Positions 26,753 to 39,931 of a stretch of 47,806 nucleotides of DNA are shown here, in pieces. The notes under the pieces were generated by a model that made no database searches, was not told the origin of the DNA, and saw nothing but the letters and a program-made list of their open reading frames with translations. The stretch comes from Thermoanaerobaculia bacterium (GTDB lineage Bacteria; Acidobacteriota; Thermoanaerobaculia; Multivoradales; UBA5704): the NCBI GenBank assembly GCA_046714475.1, contig JBKKAU010000178.1:1-47806 (forward strand), read 5' to 3'. Position 1 is the stretch's first letter; each line of letters starts with the position of its first letter. Position numbers and translations under genes: made by a program.

Positions 26753-29700
26753 TTACGGCTGCCGCGCCTGGCGCTCCGCGGCGAGCGCCTCCTTGAGGAT
26801 GAAGTCGGGGTTGCCGTAGAAGACGTAGTCGGCCCAGTCTTTGGAGCTGGTGACCTTGCGGACCTCCTCGCGGCCGGTCTGGAGCGCGTCGCCGAGCGTC
26901 TGGCCGTGGAGTATCTCCTGGTAGAACTTGCCGGCGAAGGTCTCGGCCGCGTCGTCGCGTACCGGCCAGTAGGTGCCCAGAAAATTGGCGATGCCGCCGC
27001 GCAGGAACGCCTCGGCGAAACCGGTGGTGTCTCGAAGGGTCTGCCGCTGCTCCTTGGCCGGAGCTGTACTCCCCTCGGCAACGGCCTCGCCGCGTACCCG
27101 CGCCGACTCACAGGCGTTGAAGAAGACCAGCGTCGGCAGGTTGGCGAGCCCCGCCAGGTCGGCGCCGGTCAACCGCGTCTTGCCATGGCAGAGAAGGCCG
27201 CTCCGTTCGGGGTTGACCGCATCGAAGAAGGCGTGACCGGCGTAATGGATGACGTCGTATCGTCCCGAGCTGAAGGCCGAGAGGAGGGCCGGGCGCGTCG
27301 CCTGTTCCTTCCGGAGCTCTTCGAGACGGACTCCCGAGAGCTGGGAGAGCAGGGCTTTGAGGAGCTTGCCCTCTTTGTCGGCGCCCGGCAGGTCGTCGGT
27401 GGGGTCGACGACCAGGAGGATCCGCAGCACCTCGTCCTGGAGCCGCTCCTGGAGCCACTTGGCGACTGACAGGTTGTCGGCCGCGTAGCGCCGGCTGATC
27501 CCCTTTTCGGCGGCGGGGAACCAGACCTCGGGAGCCGCCGGAAAGGTGATCGTCTTGCCGGCGGGCGGCAGGGCCCCCTGGCCGTCCTCCCGGAGGGCGA
27601 GGGTCTCCCACGGCACGCGGGACAGGAGCCCATCGTGGACCACGACGAGGTGCCGGTCGCGCTGCCGCGAGAGGACCGTACGGACCTCCGGGGCGAGCAG
27701 CTCGGCGAACTTGACGCCCACGTCCGAGAGGTTCATGTCGCTCAGCCCAGCCAGCTCGTCGATCCCCGCGTCGATCCGCTGCAGCGTGACCTCCTGAACC
27801 AGGCCGGTCACCACCGTCGCCTTGCCGCCGGCGGTCAGCACCGCCGAGCGGACGTCGAAGGGTTTTTGCGCGCCACCCTCGTCACCGGTCTCCCCCTGTT
27901 GCTCGGCGCGGACGATCAGGTAGGTGGGGTCCCGGCGCTGCACCAGGCTGCCGCCTCTGGTGGGCTCCATGACCGGAGGCTGCCGCAGCACCTCCTCGTC
28001 GAAGGTGATCTCGACGTCCTGGCAGAGCGACGTGCTCGACAGGCGATAGAGCTCCTCCTTGAGGGCGACGTAGCGCTCTGGGTTGTTCTCGCAGACGACG
28101 ATCCGCCGGAACTGATGGTCGCGGTCGGCGTCGCAGAGCCCGCGGAAGAAGCCAATCAGGAGGTTGCGCAGGGCGCTGGCCGGGGATTCGCCGGAGCTGC
28201 CGCCGAAGAGCACGGTCGAGAATTCCTCGACCCGGGTCCTCACGAAGGTGCGGATCACGTTCTCGGCCGCGGTCTGGAGCACCTCGTCGTTGAAGCGGTC
28301 GAACGGGCCGAGGCCGACGAAGGTGATCAGGTCGGCCGTCAGGGCATAGCGGCCGGTGGGCAGGATGAAGATCTCGCCGATTTCGCCCGAGAACATGCGC
28401 CGGTGCGACATCTCGGTGATGGCGCCTTCGAGCCGTTCGTCGATCGCCGCCGCGGCGCCGCTCGGCTTCACGTCGCGGAAGATGCCGAGCACGATCGCCC
28501 GGGTGTCGGCCTCGGTGATGCTCCCCAGCGCGAAGCGGAGGTCGATCCGGTGCTGGCGCCGGCGTCCGACGACGACCCGCTCGAAACGGTGCTGATAGCC
28601 GGCCTCCACCGACAGGTTGCCGGGTACCGCGACGATCGGCCGGCCCGTCGCCGTGGCGGGAAGCAGGTCCTCGCGGGCGCTCGGCGAGGCGACCTCGTCG
28701 AGCACATGGCGCAGCTCCCGCTGGCTCAGGGTGCCGTCGCGACGGGTGCCGTAGGGCAGGACCCGCAGGGCGTCCTCGGGGACGAGGCGCGTGGCGCGCA
28801 CCGGCGCCGGCGCGGTGTCCGGCAGGCTGGTGGTGGCCCCGCGGCCCAGGATGTCGATGACCGCCTTGGCCACCCGCTTGTTGTTCGGCAGGCTGCCGTG
28901 GCTCTCCTCGATGTAATAGGTCTTGGCCCCGGAGATCCGGGCGAATTCGAGCGGCACCGTGCCGTCGCCGGCTTTGGAGAATTCATAGTCGAACTGCCCG
29001 TCCTCCTTGCGTTGCACCCCGACCACGGTGTCCTGGTTGACGCCGGCGATCAGGAAGAAACGGTCGTCCGCCGCCGCGAGCCCCTTCTGGACCTCTTTGA
29101 CCTTGGCGAGGATCTCCTTGCGGGGGCGGAGCTTGTCGGCACCCGGAGGCCACATCGCGAGGTCGTAGAGGTCGACCTTGGAGAAGCGCTCGGGCGACGG
29201 CAGCATCTGGGTGAGGCCGGGAAAAGTGGTGAAGATGTCGCCGGCGAGTTGCTTGGCATCGTGATCGCGGTCGAGCTCGGCGATCTTGAGTACGACCGGG
29301 TAGGTGCCCCGGAAGGCCATGAACGGAGCGAACGAGCCGTAGTTGGGCGTGCCCAGCATCACCAGCCGGCGGCATTTCGCGCCCTTGGCGATCGCGGCGC
29401 GGGCGACCAGCCCGCCCATGCTGTGGGCGACCAGGCTGACATCGCTCCCTTCCTTCAGCATCCGCGCGGCGAGCTCCTTGCCCAGCTCGGGAAGGCTCAA
29501 ACGCCAGTCGAAGGGGTGGAATTTGGCCTCGTAACCCGCGATCTGGAGCTGCAGCTTGAGCTTCAGATACGCCAGGAGGATGACGCCGACGGCCTCGAAC
29601 TTCTTCGACGACGGGAGCGCCAGTTGCGACAGCCGCCCCATGGCGACGTCGACCGGGTCGAACCAGTACACGTCGTCGAAGGGGGGCAGCACGCGCCGGG

Positions 29701-30001
29701 TGCCGATCTTGGAGCCCATGATCCCGGGCAGGATCAGCACCACCGGTCCACCGCGGACGCTGCGGCTCTCCGCCTCTCGCTTGAGCTGGCACAGCTCCGC
29801 GTAGTTTTCGGCGCCGAAGTAGTCTTCGAGCAGACCGGAGTGCTCGCCGGTCTGGAGCGCCCTCTCGACCGACGGGTCGTCCAGCTCGAACTCGCGATGC
29901 GCGGCGACCGCTGTCGGCGCGGCGGCCTTCGGGGTCGCCGTCCGCTTCACCGGCCGCACCGGTTTCCGGGTCGTGGAGTCTTTTTTCTTGCCGTCCGCCA
30001 T
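26753..30001 (-). CDS. Multidomain cytoplasmic protein: LCAT/PGAP1-like alpha/beta-hydrolase (lipase) - linker - LAP-N (Peptidase_M17_N)/macro-like domain - CHAT caspase-like protease
   Basis: GGAGG RBS. Lipase part: VVLILPGIMGS, FHPFDWR, LVAHSMGGLVAR (GxSxG), MLGTPNYGS. Middle part: ADTRAIVLGIFRD...FSGEIGEIFILP...ITFVGLGP. CHAT part: LVVVHDGLLSRVPWETL, YDVIHYAGHAFF (His), LVFFNACESA (Cys). No signal peptide. Confidence 0.85.
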   Translation of the reverse strand: MADGKKKDSTTRKPVRPVKRTATPKAAAPTAVAAHREFELDDPSVERALQTGEHSGLLEDYFGAENYAELCQLKREAESRSVRGGPVVLILPGIMGSKIGTRRVLPPFDDVYWFDPVDVAMGRLSQLALPSSKKFEAVGVILLAYLKLKLQLQIAGYEAKFHPFDWRLSLPELGKELAARMLKEGSDVSLVAHSMGGLVARAAIAKGAKCRRLVMLGTPNYGSFAPFMAFRGTYPVVLKIAELDRDHDAKQLAGDIFTTFPGLTQMLPSPERFSKVDLYDLAMWPPGADKLRPRKEILAKVKEVQKGLAAADDRFFLIAGVNQDTVVGVQRKEDGQFDYEFSKAGDGTVPLEFARISGAKTYYIEESHGSLPNNKRVAKAVIDILGRGATTSLPDTAPAPVRATRLVPEDALRVLPYGTRRDGTLSQRELRHVLDEVASPSAREDLLPATATGRPIVAVPGNLSVEAGYQHRFERVVVGRRRQHRIDLRFALGSITEADTRAIVLGIFRDVKPSGAAAAIDERLEGAITEMSHRRMFSGEIGEIFILPTGRYALTADLITFVGLGPFDRFNDEVLQTAAENVIRTFVRTRVEEFSTVLFGGSSGESPASALRNLLIGFFRGLCDADRDHQFRRIVVCENNPERYVALKEELYRLSSTSLCQDVEITFDEEVLRQPPVMEPTRGGSLVQRRDPTYLIVRAEQQGETGDEGGAQKPFDVRSAVLTAGGKATVVTGLVQEVTLQRIDAGIDELAGLSDMNLSDVGVKFAELLAPEVRTVLSRQRDRHLVVVHDGLLSRVPWETLALREDGQGALPPAGKTITFPAAPEVWFPAAEKGISRRYAADNLSVAKWLQERLQDEVLRILLVVDPTDDLPGADKEGKLLKALLSQLSGVRLEELRKEQATRPALLSAFSSGRYDVIHYAGHAFFDAVNPERSGLLCHGKTRLTGADLAGLANLPTLVFFNACESARVRGEAVAEGSTAPAKEQRQTLRDTTGFAEAFLRGGIANFLGTYWPVRDDAAETFAGKFYQEILHGQTLGDALQTGREEVRKVTSSKDWADYVFYGNPDFILKEALAAERQARQP

Positions 30002-35505: not shown

Positions 35506-36105
35506 TCAGCGCAGGCGGCGCACCTCGCGGTGGCGGAAGCAGCCGGTGAGATGGTCGTTGACCATGCCCACGGCCTGCATGAGAGCGTAGCAGATGGTCG
35601 GCCCCACGAAGGTGAACCCCCGCCGCTGGAGCTCGCGGCTCAGGGTCTTGGACTCGGGGGTCTCCGGGGGGACCTCATTCATGCTCGCCCAGGCGTTCTG
35701 CTTCGGGGCGCCGCCGACGAAGGTCCAGAGATAGCGGTCGAAGCTGCCGTGCTCGCGCTGGACTTCGAGGAATGCCCGCGCGTTGCGCACCGTGCCCTCG
35801 ACCTTGAGACGGTTGCGGATGATGCCCGGATCGGCGAGGAGGGCCTCGACCTTGTCGGGGCCGTAGCGCGCGACGATCTCCGGGTCGAAGCCGTCGAAGG
35901 CCCGGCGGTAGCTCTCGCGCCGCCGCAGGATGGTGAGCCAGGACAGCCCGGCCTGGGCGCCTTCGAGGATCAGCATCTCGAACAGGTGGCGGTCGTCGTG
36001 GGCCGGCACGCCCCACTCCTCGTCGTGGTAGACGATATAGAGCGGGTCGCCGAGCCCCCAGGGGCAGCGGGGGCGGTCATCGGGGGGCGGAGTCTTCTCC
36101 TTCAT
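35506..36105 (-). CDS. tag: DNA-3-methyladenine glycosylase I
   Basis: CPWGLGDPLYIVYHDEEWGVP..., FEMLILEGAQAGLSWLTILRRRESYRRAF, and the C-terminal Cys/His zinc-ligand pattern. Confidence 0.9.
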   Translation of the reverse strand: MKEKTPPPDDRPRCPWGLGDPLYIVYHDEEWGVPAHDDRHLFEMLILEGAQAGLSWLTILRRRESYRRAFDGFDPEIVARYGPDKVEALLADPGIIRNRLKVEGTVRNARAFLEVQREHGSFDRYLWTFVGGAPKQNAWASMNEVPPETPESKTLSRELQRRGFTFVGPTICYALMQAVGMVNDHLTGCFRHREVRRLR

Positions 36106-36177
36106 CGTCCTGTGTTTCTATCACGCCAGTCTTGGAACCCGGTAGGCGGGAGATACAATCTGGTGAGGCCGTTCCAG

Positions 36178-36206
36178 TTGACGGATACTCCTGCCTGACT
36201 TACGCT
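36178..36206 (+). promoter_or_regulatory. Candidate sigma70-type promoter for the DUF262-HipA operon
   Basis: TTGACG, a 17-nt spacer, then TACGCT. The -10 element ends 28 nt before the TTG start at 36235. Confidence 0.35.
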
Positions 36207-36234
36207 ACGGGGCTGACGACCAAGGGAGAAAGTA

Positions 36235-37860
36235 TTGGATCCAACCCCATCGCCACGGAGCCAGGCAACGACCCAGACGGTCCAGGACCTGGTCACGCTT
36301 GTTCGTCGTGGCCAAGTCAGGGTGCCGAGCTTCCAGCGTGATCTGAAATGGAAGGCGGACGATGTCGTCGCCCTATTCGACAGCATCTACCGTGGGTATC
36401 CCATCGGGTCGTTTCTCCTCAGCAAAGGCCAGGCGGAGGCCGAGCGGATCGTCATGGGACCTCTTGCCATAGACGCTCCGGATACCCAATCGGCTCTATG
36501 GGTCGTAGACGGCCAGCAACGTCTGACGGCGCTGACTGTTGGGCTTTCACGACCGGCACCGATTCCTCTGACACCAGATGATCCCTGGGTCGTCTACTTC
36601 GATGCCGAGAGACAAATCTTCATTACTCCCCCTAAGAAAGGCGGAGTACCTTCCACTGCGATCCCCGTTATACACCTCCTGGATTCTTCGGTTCTCAGTG
36701 AGTGGGTCTATGAGTGGGCCCATGGCCGCAACGCTGCTCTGCGGACGTCCGTCTTCCAGGCAGGCCGCCGGATTCGGGAGTATGAAATACCCCTTTACAT
36801 TGTTGAAACCGAGGATGAAGAGCTCCTGAGAGACATCTTCTATCGCGTCAACAAGTTTGGGAAGCGTTTGGATTGGGATGACGTACACAAGGCGCTCTTT
36901 GGGCGTAAAGGCGCACATCCGTCGACTCTGCCTGAGCTGGCCGATGAGCTTCAAGGGCTCGGAATGGGACGACCGGAAGAGGAACAGCTGCTATCGTGTC
37001 TGATGGCGTTCAAAGGACTCGATGTCACGCGGAATATCGCCGACCACTACCGGAAAGATACAGAGGTGCTTAGAAATGCTGTCTCGGAAGCACTGCCCGC
37101 AATCCGTCGTGTCCTATCGTTCCTAAAGATCCATGCTGAGATCCCCCATCTGCGGCTGCTGCCGAGATCCATGCCGTTGATCGTGTTGACTAGGTTCTTT
37201 GCTTTACATCCCGAACCCAAGGCTCGAACCTTGGATCTATTGACGCGCTGGACTTGGCGCATGTTGTTGGGTGCGAGCGTGTACGATGAGCTTACCCTTA
37301 TGCGGCGCGGAGTTGCAGCTATCCGAGGGAGCGACGAGGAGCAGAGTGCCCAAGCCCTGCTTTCTCTCGTATCCAGTGGCGAAAAGAGATTTTTAGCTCT
37401 GCCCCAGCGATTCGATGCCCGCGCAGCCGAGAGCCGGATTGCGGTCCTCGGGATGGCATCGCTGAGGCCGCTGAATGTGAGTGACAAGAAGCCTCTCGAC
37501 ATCGCCGCCTTGATTGAGGAGCGAGATGCAGATGCCTTCCGGAGGATTCTTCCGAGGGGCGAAGTATTTGGCTCTAGTCCGGTGAATCGCATCCTTCTGC
37601 CCGGCGCCGGCTCGGCTCGCAAGGAGCTCGTCGACGAAATTACGAGCCATGGACCTGACACCGCCGTGCTGCGTTCACACGGCATTTCCGCAGCGGCGGC
37701 GGAGGCTCTCCTCCAAGGCGACGTGGAGTCGTTCCTGAAGGAGCGCGCCCAAGTGATTGAAGAGGCGGTAGACCATCTGGGGCAACGACTCGCGGCCTGG
37801 TCCAAAAACGACCGGCCATCCATCTCCTACCTGCTCGCGCAAGTGGAAACTGAGGCTTGA
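36235..37860 (+). CDS. DUF262 (ParB/Srx-fold, GmrSD N-terminal-like) protein with divergent C-terminal half
   Basis: TTG lies 5 nt after AGGGAGA. VRVPSFQRDLKWKADDVVALFDSIYRGYPIGSFLL, LWVVDGQQRLTAL, IFYRVNKFGKRL. The C-terminus contains FRRILPRGE...SSPVNRILLPG, which looks like a His-less version of the DUF1524 motifs. Confidence 0.85.
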   Translation: MDPTPSPRSQATTQTVQDLVTLVRRGQVRVPSFQRDLKWKADDVVALFDSIYRGYPIGSFLLSKGQAEAERIVMGPLAIDAPDTQSALWVVDGQQRLTALTVGLSRPAPIPLTPDDPWVVYFDAERQIFITPPKKGGVPSTAIPVIHLLDSSVLSEWVYEWAHGRNAALRTSVFQAGRRIREYEIPLYIVETEDEELLRDIFYRVNKFGKRLDWDDVHKALFGRKGAHPSTLPELADELQGLGMGRPEEEQLLSCLMAFKGLDVTRNIADHYRKDTEVLRNAVSEALPAIRRVLSFLKIHAEIPHLRLLPRSMPLIVLTRFFALHPEPKARTLDLLTRWTWRMLLGASVYDELTLMRRGVAAIRGSDEEQSAQALLSLVSSGEKRFLALPQRFDARAAESRIAVLGMASLRPLNVSDKKPLDIAALIEERDADAFRRILPRGEVFGSSPVNRILLPGAGSARKELVDEITSHGPDTAVLRSHGISAAAAEALLQGDVESFLKERAQVIEEAVDHLGQRLAAWSKNDRPSISYLLAQVETEA

Positions 37861-39095
37861 GGAGGACCTTTCAGGTTTCCCTGAGCGGTTTTCCCGTCGG
37901 CCACCTTTCGGAGGGGGACGACGGCCGGATCTCCTTCCGGTTCCTCGACGAGTACCGGCACATGCCGCAACGCCCCGTCTTGAGCCAGTCGTTCGAGGAT
38001 GACCTTTTCAGGCCCTACCGGGGCAAGCGGAATGAGCTCCCTGCCTTTTTCGCCAATCTCGTACCCGAAGGTCCTCTACGGGAGTTGATCGAGGCCAGTC
38101 TGCGGATCTCTCACGGCGATGAGATAGCTCTCCTCGCGGCTGTAGGGCGGGACCTTCCGGGTGCGGTCGAAATCCAAATCGAGTCTGGGAAAATAGAAGA
38201 CTTGGCGGACGGCGACACAGACGAACCCGCCGTGCCCGATCCGGAATCCGAAGAGGGCGTGCTGCGCTTCTCTCTCGCCGGAGTGCAGCTTAAGTTCTCT
38301 ATGTTGCGTGAGGGTGCGAAGCTGACGATCCCAGCGCATGGCCGGCTTGGAGAGTGGATCGTGAAGCTGGACTCGTCGCGATTCTCGCACGTGGTGGAAA
38401 ACGAGTTCGCCTCCCTGGAGTGGGCCCGCGCGGCAGGGTTCGACGTCCCGGAGTGCCATCTGCAGCCCTGCGGCGCGCTTCCGCCTTCCTTGCGCGGATT
38501 CGCGAATCCGGACTCGCAGGTCCTCGTCATCCGTCGCTACGACCGCGACGGTCCTCGGCGTATCCATCAGGAGGACTTCGCGCAAGTCGTGGGCCTGCCG
38601 CCGAGGCTCAAGTACGACCTCATCACCTATGAGCAGTGTGCTGTCCTGGTACGACAGATCGCCGGGGAGGACGCCTATCTAGAGTTCATCCGGCGGCTGG
38701 CCTTTGTCATCGGCTGCGGGAATGAGGATGCGCACCTCAAGAACTGGTCCTTCGTGTATCCGGATGGTGTCAATGCCAAGCTGTCCCCTCTCTATGACCA
38801 GGTCTGTACGATCGCTTGGCCTGAGCTGGGGGGTAAACTGGCGCTGAAGCTGGCCGGGCTCAAGCCTCTGCTGGCGGTAGACGAGGCGGTTTTCGTGAGG
38901 CTGGCGAAGAAGGCCAGGGTTGATGTCGATTCCACGATCTCCGTTCTGCGAGACACCTTGATTCGGATGGCCGCCGCATGGCACGTCTCGAAGGGGAGGA
39001 ATGCCATGCCGCAGGACCACCTCGAGACGCTCCGCTCGTACTGGATGAAAGCGCCCCTGTTGAAGCCTTATGCGGCGATGCTTGTGCTCGAGTAG
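37857..39095 (+). CDS. hipA: HipA-family Ser/Thr kinase (full length: N-terminal coupling domain plus kinase core)
   Basis: The TTG start overlaps the upstream stop (TTGA). FFANLVPEGPLRELI, FSLAGVQLKFS, VIRRYDR, IHQEDFAQV, CGNEDAHLKNWSF. Confidence 0.9.
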   Translation: MRRTFQVSLSGFPVGHLSEGDDGRISFRFLDEYRHMPQRPVLSQSFEDDLFRPYRGKRNELPAFFANLVPEGPLRELIEASLRISHGDEIALLAAVGRDLPGAVEIQIESGKIEDLADGDTDEPAVPDPESEEGVLRFSLAGVQLKFSMLREGAKLTIPAHGRLGEWIVKLDSSRFSHVVENEFASLEWARAAGFDVPECHLQPCGALPPSLRGFANPDSQVLVIRRYDRDGPRRIHQEDFAQVVGLPPRLKYDLITYEQCAVLVRQIAGEDAYLEFIRRLAFVIGCGNEDAHLKNWSFVYPDGVNAKLSPLYDQVCTIAWPELGGKLALKLAGLKPLLAVDEAVFVRLAKKARVDVDSTISVLRDTLIRMAAAWHVSKGRNAMPQDHLETLRSYWMKAPLLKPYAAMLVLE

Positions 39096-39104
39096 GAATT
39101 CCGA

Positions 39105-39599
39105 ATGAGACGAGGCAGACTCCTTTCGCTGTTCACGATGTGGTCGATCGTGGCCCTTCTCGGTTTGAGCCTCGGCGAAGCCCTCGCCGCGCGCTGGAGC
39201 GGCACCGAGCCGCGGATCAATCAGACCCATGTCTTCCAGGGGGAGATCAACCGGCGGGGGCGGCCGGTCGGCTTCCATTCGCGGCCGGGCGGGCGCAACC
39301 CCCAGGGGGCGCGGGTGGCCGGCGTGACGCGCGGGCCCAACCGCGAGGGGGTCTACGAGGCGCGGGTCGAGATCCGTGACCCGGAGAGCGGCCGGTGGCT
39401 GGAGAAGCGGTCGACTTTCTTCCCCGACTCCATGAGCCGCGACCAGGTGATCCGCGCCATCTTGAATGCCTGGCGCGGGCGGACGACGGGGCAGTCTCAG
39501 AAGTTCCGCGGCCCGTCGGGCCGGGGCTTCACCATCGAAGGCTATCTCCTGGACGGCGACATCAACACCGCGTATCCGATCTACCGGGAGGGTCGATGA
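39105..39599 (+). CDS. Bacterial EndoU-family RNase toxin domain with N-terminal signal peptide
   Basis: MRRGRLLSLFTMWSIVALLGLSLGEALA, then HVFQGEINRRGRPVGFHS...GVYEARVEI...KRSTFFPDSMSRDQVIRAI...GFTIEGYLLDGDINTAYPIY. This matches the EndoU_bacteria pattern. Confidence 0.8.
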   Translation: MRRGRLLSLFTMWSIVALLGLSLGEALAARWSGTEPRINQTHVFQGEINRRGRPVGFHSRPGGRNPQGARVAGVTRGPNREGVYEARVEIRDPESGRWLEKRSTFFPDSMSRDQVIRAILNAWRGRTTGQSQKFRGPSGRGFTIEGYLLDGDINTAYPIYREGR

Positions 39600-39931
39600 A
39601 GCTGGAGATCTATCGCGACGAGGCGGGAGACCCCCGCGTCCAGTCGGAGGAGGACGGTTCGCTGCTGGCCCGGTTCCTGGAGAGCGACATCCAGGGCAAT
39701 CCCGAGCACGGTCGCGAGATCCTGCGGGCGATCGAGGAGGTGGAGGCGGGGGAGACCGAAGCCTGGGAGGAGACGGGCAACGCCCATACCCTGATCCTGT
39801 CGTCGGTCGGCGCCGTGATCGAAGCCGAATTCGAGGACGCGCCGGCCTGCCGGCTGTCCCTGGCCGAGCTCTGGGAGGCGGTCGCGGATTGGGTTGCCTT
39901 CCTGGATGCCGAGGAGGGAGAGCGCGCCTGA
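39596..39931 (+). CDS. Acidic 111-aa protein, UPF0231/YacL-like; candidate immunity/partner of the EndoU protein
   Basis: ATG overlaps the EndoU stop (ATGA). MKLEIYRDEAGDPRV...AWEETGNAHTLILSSVGAVIEAEF...LSLAELWEAVADWVAFL parallels the E. coli YacL layout as I recall it. Confidence 0.55.
   Translation: MKLEIYRDEAGDPRVQSEEDGSLLARFLESDIQGNPEHGREILRAIEEVEAGETEAWEETGNAHTLILSSVGAVIEAEFEDAPACRLSLAELWEAVADWVAFLDAEEGERA

Follow-up and report, generated by a model that had tools for sequence, protein, structure and literature searches.

HipA kinases are classic persistence toxins, and the central question about them is what restrains them and what releases them. Wherever a Hip system has been characterised, its toxin is the kinase (PMC8262856; PMC12548924). 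In hipBST the antitoxin role belongs to a protein other than the HTH protein HipB, and monocistronic kinases of the family that lack a separate antitoxin, YjjJ/HipH and HipL, have been described (PMC8262856). HipA paired with a DUF3037 protein (PDC-M66/DS-6) defends against phage Bas51; in that system HipA is the toxin, a non-HTH partner neutralises it and deletion of the partner is toxic (PMC12548924). Among type IV restriction enzymes with an N-terminal DUF262 domain, BrxU needs S42, Q101 and R102 for NTP hydrolysis, and D474 and H475 of its (D/E)HIxP motif are required for cleavage (PMC8565348).

Here we analyse a HipA kinase gene that follows a DUF262 gene in the window, by which we mean the whole 47.8-kb stretch of DNA studied. 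The pair suggests an undescribed form of control of a bacterial 'suicide or dormancy' kinase. Current annotation records its members only as 'DUF262 domain-containing protein' and 'HipA family toxin', and neither PADLOC, the published HipA catalogue nor the literature that we searched describes the pair.

Organization of the locus

Both ORFs lie where the initial annotation had placed them, and the overlap that it reported between the DUF262 stop codon and the TTG start of hipA is present in the sequence (Table 1). The four strings that it quoted from the partner all occur in the translation (FQRDLKW at residues 33-39, DGQQR at 92-96, FRRILPRGE at 435-443 and SSPVNRILLPG at 447-457). In the public annotation the DUF262 gene (P0001) is called shorter, at 468 aa; we prefer the 541-aa start because the Shine-Dalgarno sequence AAGGGAGA precedes its TTG. 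Homologues of the protein, which number more than 750, are typically ~544 aa long. GC content is 0.59-0.62 across the pair, against ~0.69 in its flanks within the window.

Table 1. Features of the DUF262-hipA locus, in window coordinates
Feature	Coordinates	Strand	Remarks
Promoter-like TTGGAA-16 nt-TACAAT	36132..36159	+	Weakly supported; within the 129-nt intergenic gap before the DUF262 gene
Shine-Dalgarno AAGGGAGA	36222..36229	+	5 nt ahead of the DUF262 TTG start; read directly
DUF262 partner gene, PDC-M55C type	36235..37860	+	TTG start, 541 aa; occupies the HipB position
DUF262/GmrSD_N domain (ParB/Srx-like NTP-binding), residues 17-222	36283..36900	+	Pfam PF03235, E 1.6e-23
Helical middle region, residues 225-379	36907..37371	+	Includes EIPHLRLLPR and RTLDLLTRWTWR
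C-terminal domain, residues 380-520	37372..37794	+	Positionally equivalent to DUF1524; no catalytic Asp-His
C-terminal tail, residues 521-541 (AWSKNDRPSISYLLAQVETEA)	37795..37857	+	Specific to the HipA-linked family; W..DRPSI
TTGA stop/start overlap	37857..37860	+	Translational coupling; TGA of the DUF262 gene over TTG of hipA
HipA-family Ser/Thr kinase gene	37857..39095	+	TTG start, 412 aa; presumed toxin/effector
HipA N-terminal (HipS-like) subdomain, residues 6-106	37872..38174	+	Couple_hipA PF13657, E 1.8e-21; TIGR03071
Kinase core, residues 138-375	38268..38981	+	HipA_C PF07804, E 3.2e-46

The promoter-like site is the single sigma-70-like match in positions 35900-39700, a count not above the 0.7 expected from shuffled sequences. 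Its placement is compatible with an operon promoter.

Upstream, across the intergenic gap, the nearest gene encodes a 3-methyladenine glycosylase in divergent orientation (35506-36105, minus strand), and an EndoU gene lies downstream of hipA. No HTH gene adjoins the pair, as had been noted, and Pfam detects no HTH in the partner; the Xre-type HTH HipB beside hipA that distinguishes canonical hipBA is thus absent from the partner and from the neighbouring genes. Searching the whole window by tblastn with 12 HipB queries from the sister clade revealed no HipB-like sequence, the best match (E 0.015) falling inside a peptidase gene; a hipB may lie elsewhere in the genome, outside this 47.8-kb contig. 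We found no tRNA and no notable flanking direct or inverted repeats as island boundaries.

The kinase is full length and looks active

Pfam matched both Couple_hipA and HipA_C, the latter at 158 bits against a cut-off of 30.5, in agreement with the earlier reading of a full-length HipA. The N-terminal subdomain matches the HipS chains 7vkb_B and 7ab3_B, and sequence matches of the kinase in the PDB include HipT (7ab4, 2.4e-15) and E. coli HipA (2.4e-10). Among the PADLOC HipA models, weak matches to PDC-M03A were the only ones obtained. We identified the Gly-rich loop FSLAGVQLKFS (with S139), the catalytic motif GNEDAHLKN (D291) and the Mg-binding motif PLYDQ (D314); SLAGVQLK, GNEDAHLKN and PLYDQ align to the HipT motifs SIAGYQPK, GNNDMHLRN and PVYDF. 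No variation was seen in these motif columns among 17 partner kinases, and across 71 their conservation is 97% or more. The kinase retains all catalytic motifs and looks active.

The partner resembles BrxU over its full length

The DUF262 domain carries the motifs FQR (residues 33-35), ALFDS (46-50) and DGQQR (92-96). They are conserved in 76 members of the family, and the NTP-binding motifs are intact; F33, Q34, R35, S50 and D92-R96 are each at least 97% conserved. The conserved residues include the equivalents of those that BrxU needs for NTP hydrolysis. The middle region alone is homologous to the inter-domain region of BrxU (hhalign E 7.1e-5, probability 63%), and its residues R331, L335, L336, R338, W341 and R342 are also conserved in at least 97% of the 76 members.

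For these comparisons the BrxU/GmrSD group was represented by six full-length GmrSD genes from plasmids (pEFER is NC_011743), used in place of a 105-aa BrxU fragment that, as a homologue query, had returned only N-terminal fragments without DUF1524. Full-length hhalign of the partner against this group gave E 8.5e-26 over residues 11-518, and BrxU was the only significant structural match of the full-length partner in Foldseek. The partner also matches the PADLOC model PDC-M55C (PDLC04709) with E 7.9e-60 over residues 12-519, or E 1.4e-55 by full-length hhalign. By these profile comparisons, the partner is a GmrSD/BrxU-derived protein of the PDC-M55C type.

A C-terminal domain without the nuclease dyad

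The C-terminal half had been described as DUF1524-like, a claim that stands in part. In its favour, the full-length hhalign and Foldseek results point to BrxU, and the AF2 domain model (pLDDT 89, pTM 0.80) contains a beta-beta-alpha arrangement (DSSP strands 435-437 and 452-454, helix 462-472) at FRR, RIL and the following helix, the register that the initial annotation had proposed. Taken alone, however, the domain is only marginally similar: the last 160 residues aligned to the BrxU DUF1524 with hhalign E 0.016 (score 20.0, against 8.5-14.8 for 20 shuffles), Foldseek returned no significant match and did not recover BrxU, and the residue registers disagree. HNH domains account for 19 of the 43 weak Foldseek matches. 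Pfam recognised no domain in residues 223-541, and residues 218-541 and 389-541 stayed blank even at E<=10; little can be concluded from this blank, as the DUF1524 of BrxU itself also falls below the Pfam cut-off (17 bits against 23). The partner C-terminus aligns to that of PDC-M55C with E 1.5e-11.

Three candidate equivalents of BrxU D474/H475 were considered: A424/A425 from hhalign, R436/R437 from the first strand of the model, and R452/I453 from a local re-alignment of the beta-beta-alpha segments, which is not significant (E 0.27). The first is doubtful, as the two alanines lie within a helix of the high-confidence model, and residue-level equivalences between BrxU and the partner in this domain rest on inspection. 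An Asp-His pair was found at none of these registers in any of the 76 members. The catalytic Asp-His is therefore absent in every register considered, in line with the suspicion of the initial annotation that the nuclease histidine is replaced. With ALFDS and DGQQR kept and no counterpart of D474/H475, the features of the partner suit a sensor better than a nuclease. Given the marginal similarity to DUF1524, the 'dead nuclease' could instead be a different domain.

N451 is kept in 74 of the 76 members and H482 in at least 97%; residue 455, a Leu in the window protein, is His in 47 of the 76. The partner may contain a non-canonical active site. N451, H482, R504 and D526 are conserved family-wide.

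The PDC-M55C profile and its hhalign alignment both end at about residue 520, ahead of the C-terminal tail, in which D526 is at least 97% conserved (76 members). The pattern [DE]R[PS]x[hydrophobic] occurs within the last 30 residues of 87% of the family and of 40% of HipB proteins from the sister clade; in shuffled sequences its frequency is 1-3%. The partner tail resembles the HipB tail in this five-residue, degenerate motif, and we regard it as a candidate kinase-docking element.

Distribution and phylogeny of the pair

A HipA gene lies directly downstream of the DUF262 homologue in 77 of 80 genomic loci seeded with the DUF262 protein. The three exceptions are two contig ends and one decayed copy (L034) that retained the DUF262 gene and lost the kinase, so that the pair is kept in 77 of 78 evaluable loci. 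The gap at the junction ranges from -17 to +22 nt in all 67 loci where it could be evaluated, with an overlap of 4 or 1 nt in 34 of them. The DUF262 protein and HipA have diverged together (mirror-tree r=0.89, reached by 0 of 999 Mantel permutations), and their pairing is far above chance.

The module is common among bacteria and spans at least five phyla (Acidobacteriota, Cyanobacteria, Myxococcota, Bacteroidota and Pseudomonadota). The profile of the DUF262-type protein matches 861 clusters at 50% identity (E<=1e-30), culturable carriers include Myxococcus, Corallococcus, Sorangium, Azospirillum, Methylomonas and Hymenobacter, and the pair also occurs on Azospirillum plasmids. No true family members were found on viral contigs, which carry only PDC-M55C-type relatives of 23-28% identity without HipA, and no fusion protein was present among the best 150 representatives. 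No conserved third gene or HTH surrounds the module across the 80 loci; additional conserved ORF clusters near it proved to be antisense or overlapping ORFs within the two genes. The 128 flanking ORFs are mostly unrelated housekeeping genes, only a handful of which match PADLOC families, and a defence-island setting was therefore dropped as support.

When loci were seeded with the kinase instead, the DUF262 gene was upstream in 17 and a short ORF occupied the same overlapped slot in the other 53. Most of these short ORFs read as Xre-type HipB, and all ten that were sampled are HTH_3 proteins by Pfam. The closest kinases outside the DUF262-linked group thus belong to canonical hipBA, which corroborates the earlier proposal that the DUF262 protein stands in the HipB slot. 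In a neighbour-joining tree of 136 kinases, a single branch parts 87 DUF262-linked from 49 HipB-linked sequences, and the nearest neighbour shares the partner type for 135 of the 136. This perfect split by partner type implies that HipB was replaced once, anciently, by a DUF262 protein in this kinase lineage.

Proposed function and alternatives

The initial annotation had offered two possibilities, a DUF262 antitoxin or sensor that controls the kinase, or a kinase that regulates a ParB-fold protein; the comparative evidence favours the former. We consider it somewhat probable that the pair is a self-contained mobile hipA operon in which a GmrSD-derived, NTP/DNA-sensing partner with an apparently inactive nuclease holds a kinase toxin, forming a TA-like or abortive-infection module. 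The DUF262 protein would bind HipA and keep it inactive, possibly through the W..DRPSI tail. Its ParB-like NTP switch and a non-cutting DNA-binding domain would sense a signal and release the kinase; by analogy with BrxU, whose dimer is split by NTP binding, candidate signals are altered nucleotide pools and DNA that is foreign or modified. By analogy with HipA and HipT, the released kinase may halt translation by phosphorylating an aminoacyl-tRNA synthetase. The outcome could be growth arrest or abortive infection and, on plasmids, possibly post-segregational killing. A length of 541 aa is unusual for an antitoxin and counts against this reading. We judge a role in defence to be less well supported than a TA role, because the neighbourhoods are not defence islands and viral contigs carry no true members.

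More tentatively, the pair may represent a widespread, undescribed immune or addiction class, in which a GmrSD-lineage sensor was spliced in for the DNA-binding domain of HipB while the HipB docking tail was kept or re-created. NTP-dependent recognition of foreign or modified DNA would then release HipA and shut down translation with no DNA cleavage. This fuller scenario is possible but we would not call it likely.

It is unlikely that the direction of control is reversed, with the GmrSD-like protein as the effector (a DNA-binding or NTP-depleting toxin, or a non-canonical nuclease) and HipA regulating it by phosphorylation. HipA kinases autophosphorylate and in principle could phosphorylate a partner, and the relatives of the DUF262 partner (PDC-M55C, NsnA and GmrSD) come from defence systems in which DNA is the presumed target of the DUF262 protein. 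The family-wide conservation of N451, H482, R504 and D526, with His455 in many members, would also suit an effector, yet the Asp-His dyad for BrxU cleavage is absent and the protein sits in the upstream overlapped slot, the inhibitor's place in hipBA. Loss of the kinase with retention of the DUF262 gene, as in L034, is the pattern expected if the kinase is the harmful component, the role that it has in each characterised Hip system (PMC8262856; PMC12548924).

We likewise give little credence to a partner that, as a targeting or activating adaptor, brings HipA to DNA or to a particular substrate in an NTP-dependent manner, with the kinase checked by autophosphorylation or by its own HipS-like subdomain. 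That subdomain is retained, as is S139 of the Gly-rich loop, the serine of HipA and HipT autophosphorylation, and kinases such as YjjJ/HipH and HipL do exist without a separate antitoxin (PMC8262856). Co-divergence indicates interaction or co-function, not its sign. An adaptor sits poorly, however, with a sister clade that needs HipB in the same slot, with tight, partner-first translational coupling of the kind typical of antitoxin-toxin stoichiometry control, and with the HipA/DUF3037 precedent, in which partner deletion is toxic (PMC12548924).

It is very improbable that the two genes have independent functions and simply share a cassette, the one encoding an active type IV restriction enzyme and the other an addictive HipA toxin under another factor. 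Restriction and TA genes frequently cluster on mobile DNA, and the homology to BrxU does extend over the full length, but the partner lacks the catalytic Asp-His, no other conserved candidate antitoxin lies nearby, and the 4-nt overlap, the co-divergence (r=0.89) and a perfect partner-specific kinase clade would be unexpected. Chance adjacency, mis-annotation or pseudogenes, to which the shorter public call (468 aa) and the TTG starts of both genes might have pointed, can be dismissed: the pair is kept in 77 of 78 evaluable loci with tight junctions, co-divergence and a split kinase tree, both ORFs are intact with conserved motifs, and the Shine-Dalgarno sequence and the ~544-aa homologues agree with the TTG start.

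With a clean phylogenetic split, this kinase lineage offers a natural experiment in which one kind of kinase has two partner types, a small HTH repressor and a 541-aa, restriction-enzyme-derived NTP-binding protein. Should the partner prove to be a sensor, nucleotides, modified DNA or phage infection could be used to test directly what triggers a HipA kinase, and the pair would exemplify the conversion of a restriction enzyme from a cutter into a signalling receptor.

Comparison with known systems

Like the GmrSD/BrxU/SspE type IV restriction enzymes, the partner has an N-terminal DUF262 domain with the RLFDS and DGQQR motifs (ALFDS46-50 and DGQQR92-96 here), a collinear helical middle region and the same overall length and order. 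It differs in lacking the Asp-His of DHIxP and the metal-site Asn, in its pairing with a kinase, in its extra conserved C-terminal tail and in a C-terminal domain that alone is barely similar.

The PADLOC candidate system PDC-M55, mentioned in none of the searched papers, comprises an ABC-type ATPase related to Menshen NsnB (component A), a component B and a long DUF262 protein (component C). Homology of component C to the partner extends through both halves and takes in the SSPxNRxxxP and SHxI motifs, but component C is without the W..DRPSI tail. Components A and B are encoded upstream of component C on a Paracoccus plasmid and in viral relatives. The window and the 80 loci lack both genes, and a HipA kinase follows instead. 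From Menshen (NsnABC), the NsnA model matches residues 10-100 of the partner only (3.3e-12), and the NsnB and NsnC genes are absent.

The kinase core is closest in sequence to HipT (7ab4, 2.4e-15) of hipBST (E. coli O127, Legionella). HipT, however, has no N-terminal subdomain, which HipS supplies in trans, whereas here the subdomain is within the kinase and the locus has no HipB or HipS gene.

Canonical hipBA (E. coli K-12, Shewanella, Caulobacter) shares with this locus a full-length HipA with its N-terminal subdomain and all four core motifs, and a two-gene operon with an upstream partner and a stop/start overlap; the sister-clade kinases are bona fide hipBA. In place of an Xre-type HTH HipB, the locus encodes a 541-aa partner in which a ParB-like NTP-binding domain, but no HTH, is recognisable.

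Compared with HipA and DUF3037 (PDC-M66/DS-6), the partner family is unrelated (DUF262, with no Pfam match to DUF3037). The two systems are alike in joining a HipA-like kinase to a non-HipB partner in a stand-alone two-gene module.

The DUF262-hipA locus

The initial annotation had described two same-strand ORFs joined by a stop/start overlap, with no HTH gene adjoining them, and we recovered each of these features. Both ORFs were found (table), the stop of the DUF262 gene and the start of HipA have the four bases TTGA in common, and the neighbours are a glycosylase gene upstream and an EndoU gene downstream. Querying with HipB proteins from the sister clade, whose kinases are closest to DUF262-linked HipA, revealed no HipB-like sequence in the whole 47.8-kb window.

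Features of the DUF262-hipA locus and of its surroundings
Feature	Position	Strand	Details
DUF262 gene	36235-37860	+	ORF, TTG start, 541 aa
hipA	37857-39095	+	ORF, TTG start, 412 aa
Gly-rich loop FSLAGVQLK (S139)	HipA		structure-sequence alignment
Catalytic motif GNEDAHLKN	HipA		structure-sequence alignment
Mg-binding motif PLYDQ	HipA		structure-sequence alignment
3-methyladenine glycosylase gene	upstream neighbour of DUF262 gene	divergent	
EndoU_bacteria nuclease-toxin-like gene	within 39105-39931	+	164 aa, Pfam E 1.2e-23
UPF0231/YacL-like ORF	within 39105-39931	+	Pfam E 8.3e-7
1082-aa ORF	26753-30001	-	

In the public annotation, the DUF262 gene (P0001) is called at 468 aa, 87% of the query, with an apparent start at Met74 that affects positions 36235-36456 and would cost the protein its FQR and ALFDS motifs. 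We favour the 541-aa form because a ribosome-binding site, AAGGGAGA, lies 5 nt upstream of the TTG at 36235 and homologues are ~544 aa in length; these sequence features indicate that the longer form is correct. GC content is 0.59-0.62 over 36001-39000, compared with ~0.69 in both flanks, which suggests that the cassette was horizontally acquired. At the cassette ends in the window we found neither a tRNA gene nor an integrase, and no flanking repeats.

The EndoU gene begins 10 nt past the HipA stop and its product has a signal peptide-like N-terminus. It is followed by the UPF0231/YacL-like ORF, which could be a candidate immunity gene for EndoU. These two genes were found beside DUF262-HipA in no other locus examined. 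Elsewhere in the window, the 1082-aa ORF appears by eye to be alpha/beta-hydrolase-like (GHSMGG), with a CHAT-like C-terminal region (HYAGHA ... NACES).

Pairing of DUF262 and HipA across genomes

Pattern scanning, with each GTDB species represented by a single genome, identified 495 relatives, the best 80 of which (33-67% identical) were analysed and belong to Acidobacteriota, Cyanobacteria, Myxococcota, Bacteroidota and Alpha-, Beta- and Gammaproteobacteria. In 77 of these 80 loci, the gene directly downstream of the DUF262 gene is hipA. Two of the exceptions stop at a contig edge and the third, the sole locus of the 80 in which the kinase is lost, is a decayed module (L034:5926-7686). Here the DUF262 ORF is whole through its tail and fused in frame to a HipA remnant that holds the Gly-rich loop (RFSLAGSQLRLS) and then a stop; the remaining hipA has been lost and alaS comes next. 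Where both starts could be placed (67 loci), the gap between the genes ranges from -17 to +22 nt, with a 4-nt overlap in 30. Pairwise identities of the DUF262 proteins correlate with those of the kinases (r=0.89), a value matched in 0 of 999 Mantel permutations. The two genes are coupled, are inherited together and form one unit; a less likely rival explanation is that kinase and partner are independent passengers.

No conserved third gene was found near the pair across loci, and its flanks hold unrelated housekeeping genes with few defence-family matches. The pair is also present on Azospirillum plasmids, where the RefSeq names are "DUF262 domain-containing protein" and "type II toxin-antitoxin system HipA family toxin". 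The DUF262-type family comprises 861 clusters at 50% identity (E<=1e-30), and no kinase fusions occur among the top 150.

A probable replacement of HipB

Because DUF262-seeded loci bias the association, a metagenome scan was seeded with the kinase. A DUF262 gene lies upstream in 17 of 70 evaluable loci, and in the other 53 a short ORF occupies the identical overlapped slot. Most of these short ORFs carry an Xre-type motif, with Pfam HTH_3 in 10/10 sampled, and we therefore regard them as classical HipB. The earlier proposal that the DUF262 protein holds the HipB slot thus stands, given that HipB is found in the identical overlapped position.

In a neighbour-joining tree of 136 kinases, one branch parts 49 HipB-linked from 87 DUF262-linked sequences, and the nearest neighbour has a like partner type for 135 of the 136 kinases. 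Given this single split, and given that Hip operons generally have an HTH partner (PMC8262856), the simplest reading is that a GmrSD-like protein took the place of HipB once, in the distant past, a direction that we infer, the tree being unrooted.

The kinase and the N-terminal and middle parts of its partner

Pfam domains of HipA are Couple_hipA (residues 6-106) and HipA_C (residues 138-375), and alignment to HipT and HipA structures places all of the functional motifs. In the 541-aa partner, Pfam detects only DUF262/GmrSD_N (residues 17-222), and PDC-M55C, the long DUF262 component of the PADLOC candidate system PDC-M55, matches residues 12-519 (E 7.9e-60). The RLFDS and DGQQR motifs of BrxU, a GmrSD-type restriction enzyme, read ALFDS and DGQQR. 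NTP hydrolysis by BrxU needs S42, Q101 and R102 (PMC8565348), and their counterparts are at least 97% conserved among 76 family members. A profile of these 76 aligned with the six-member BrxU group over residues 11-518 (E 8.5e-26), BrxU was the sole Foldseek match of the full-length model (pLDDT 69.6; E 7e-9), and the middle region alone (225-379) is homologous to that of BrxU (E 7e-5).

The C-terminal domain

The initial annotation had suggested a DUF1524-like tail apparently without the nuclease histidine. The absence of the catalytic Asp-His holds in 76/76 members, but the likeness itself is marginal. For residues 365-541, a model based on 150 sequences (pLDDT 89, pTM 0.80) predicts a beta-beta-alpha unit, with strands at 435-437 (FRR) and 452-454 (RIL) and a helix at 462-472. 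This prediction and the full-length match to BrxU favour the likeness, but Foldseek with the domain alone gave nothing significant and did not recover BrxU; 19 of its 43 weak matches are HNH domains of Cas9 or Cap5. The last 160 residues alone align with BrxU at E 0.016, scoring 20.0 versus 8.5-14.8 for 20 shuffles. Three residue registers are possible between the domain and the BrxU DUF1524, and the Asp-His dyad required for BrxU cleavage (PMC8565348) is missing from 76/76 members in every register considered. N451, kept in 74/76, is a candidate for the structural Asn in an HNH finger.

Compared with the PDC-M55C C-terminus alone (E 1.5e-11), the domain is, judged by alignment, clearly the same, and the nuclease histidine is also missing from PDC-M55C. 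With moderate confidence, we interpret the C-terminal domain as derived from DUF1524 but diverged and probably without catalytic activity. Position 455 (nt 37597-37599) is Leu in the window and His in 47/76 members, chiefly of Myxococcota and Proteobacteria clades, in which NRILLP reads ANRLLHP. Where present, His455 lies at the end of strand 2 in the predicted beta-beta-alpha unit. Since H482 is also nearly invariant across the family, an unconventional active site is possible.

A tail specific to the HipA-linked family

Neither the PDC-M55C profile nor the hhalign alignment extends beyond about residue 520. The last 21 residues of the DUF262 protein (AWSKNDRPSISYLL...) are conserved in the HipA-linked family only, with D526 at least 97% conserved, and the tail motif is absent from PDC-M55C. 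The C-terminus of sister-clade HipB is similar ("[DE]R[PS]-x-aromatic/aliphatic ... acidic"): in loci L115-L182, HipB has within its last ~30 residues, for example, ERPLYAxDDE or LPAYRLDEEDD, and the DUF262 partners have the form DRPSIxxL...acidic. Within their last 30 residues, 87% of DUF262 proteins and 40% of HipBs have the motif, as do 1-3% of shuffles. As the motif is short, we put forward as a hypothesis that the tail may be a kinase-docking element, possibly common to HipB and perhaps a relic of hipB.

Relatives with other neighbours

PDC-M55 is a candidate system by PADLOC prediction, and its A and B genes accompany DUF262 on plasmid and viral contigs. On Paracoccus yeei pYEE5 (L082:3624-7623), a three-gene PDC-M55 operon consists of an ATPase related to Menshen NsnB, an uncharacterised gene and, last, the long DUF262 gene. 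On a Klebsiella plasmid (L083:4925-7518), the long DUF262 gene comes after an AbiP/AbiC-like gene. Viral contigs (L092, L100, L101) carry the long type with PDC-M55A/B, and HipA was never seen beside it there. As PDC-M55, AbiP/AbiC-like and HipA contexts all occur, the long DUF262 protein is, by its gene neighbourhoods, a swappable component with HipA as one of several partners.

Proposed function and comparison with known systems

The catalytic motifs of the kinase are conserved; in the partner the NTP-binding motifs are kept and the nuclease dyad is missing. By analogy with all characterised Hip systems, in which the kinase is the toxin, we lean towards a model in which the partner would keep the kinase inactive and an NTP- and DNA-responsive switch in the partner would release it, leading to translation arrest. 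The BrxU dimer comes apart on NTP binding (PMC8565348). There are two less likely rivals: control may run the other way, with the roles of partner and kinase reversed, or the partner may be an adaptor. For the model of a kinase toxin held by its partner, a plain addiction (toxin-antitoxin) role is as likely as phage defence, because defence-island context is absent.

HipA with a DUF262, GmrSD or ParB-like partner is undescribed in the literature searched (subscription journals were outside its scope), and a search by Pfam accession for the HipA-DUF262 pairing found nothing. The sole paper in that literature with both HipA and DUF262 concerns an unrelated operon, and PDC-M55 is not mentioned there. 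Gerdes et al. 2021 (PMC8262856) catalogued ten HipA operon types, none of which has a DUF262 partner, and no model in PADLOC v2 joins HipA and a DUF262 protein. We classify the pair as a Hip kinase module whose partner belongs to a new class; the pair may have been described outside the literature searched. A precedent for a non-HTH neutraliser is HipA with DUF3037 (PDC-M66/DS-6), in which deletion of the kinase ends defence and deletion of the partner is toxic (PMC12548924).
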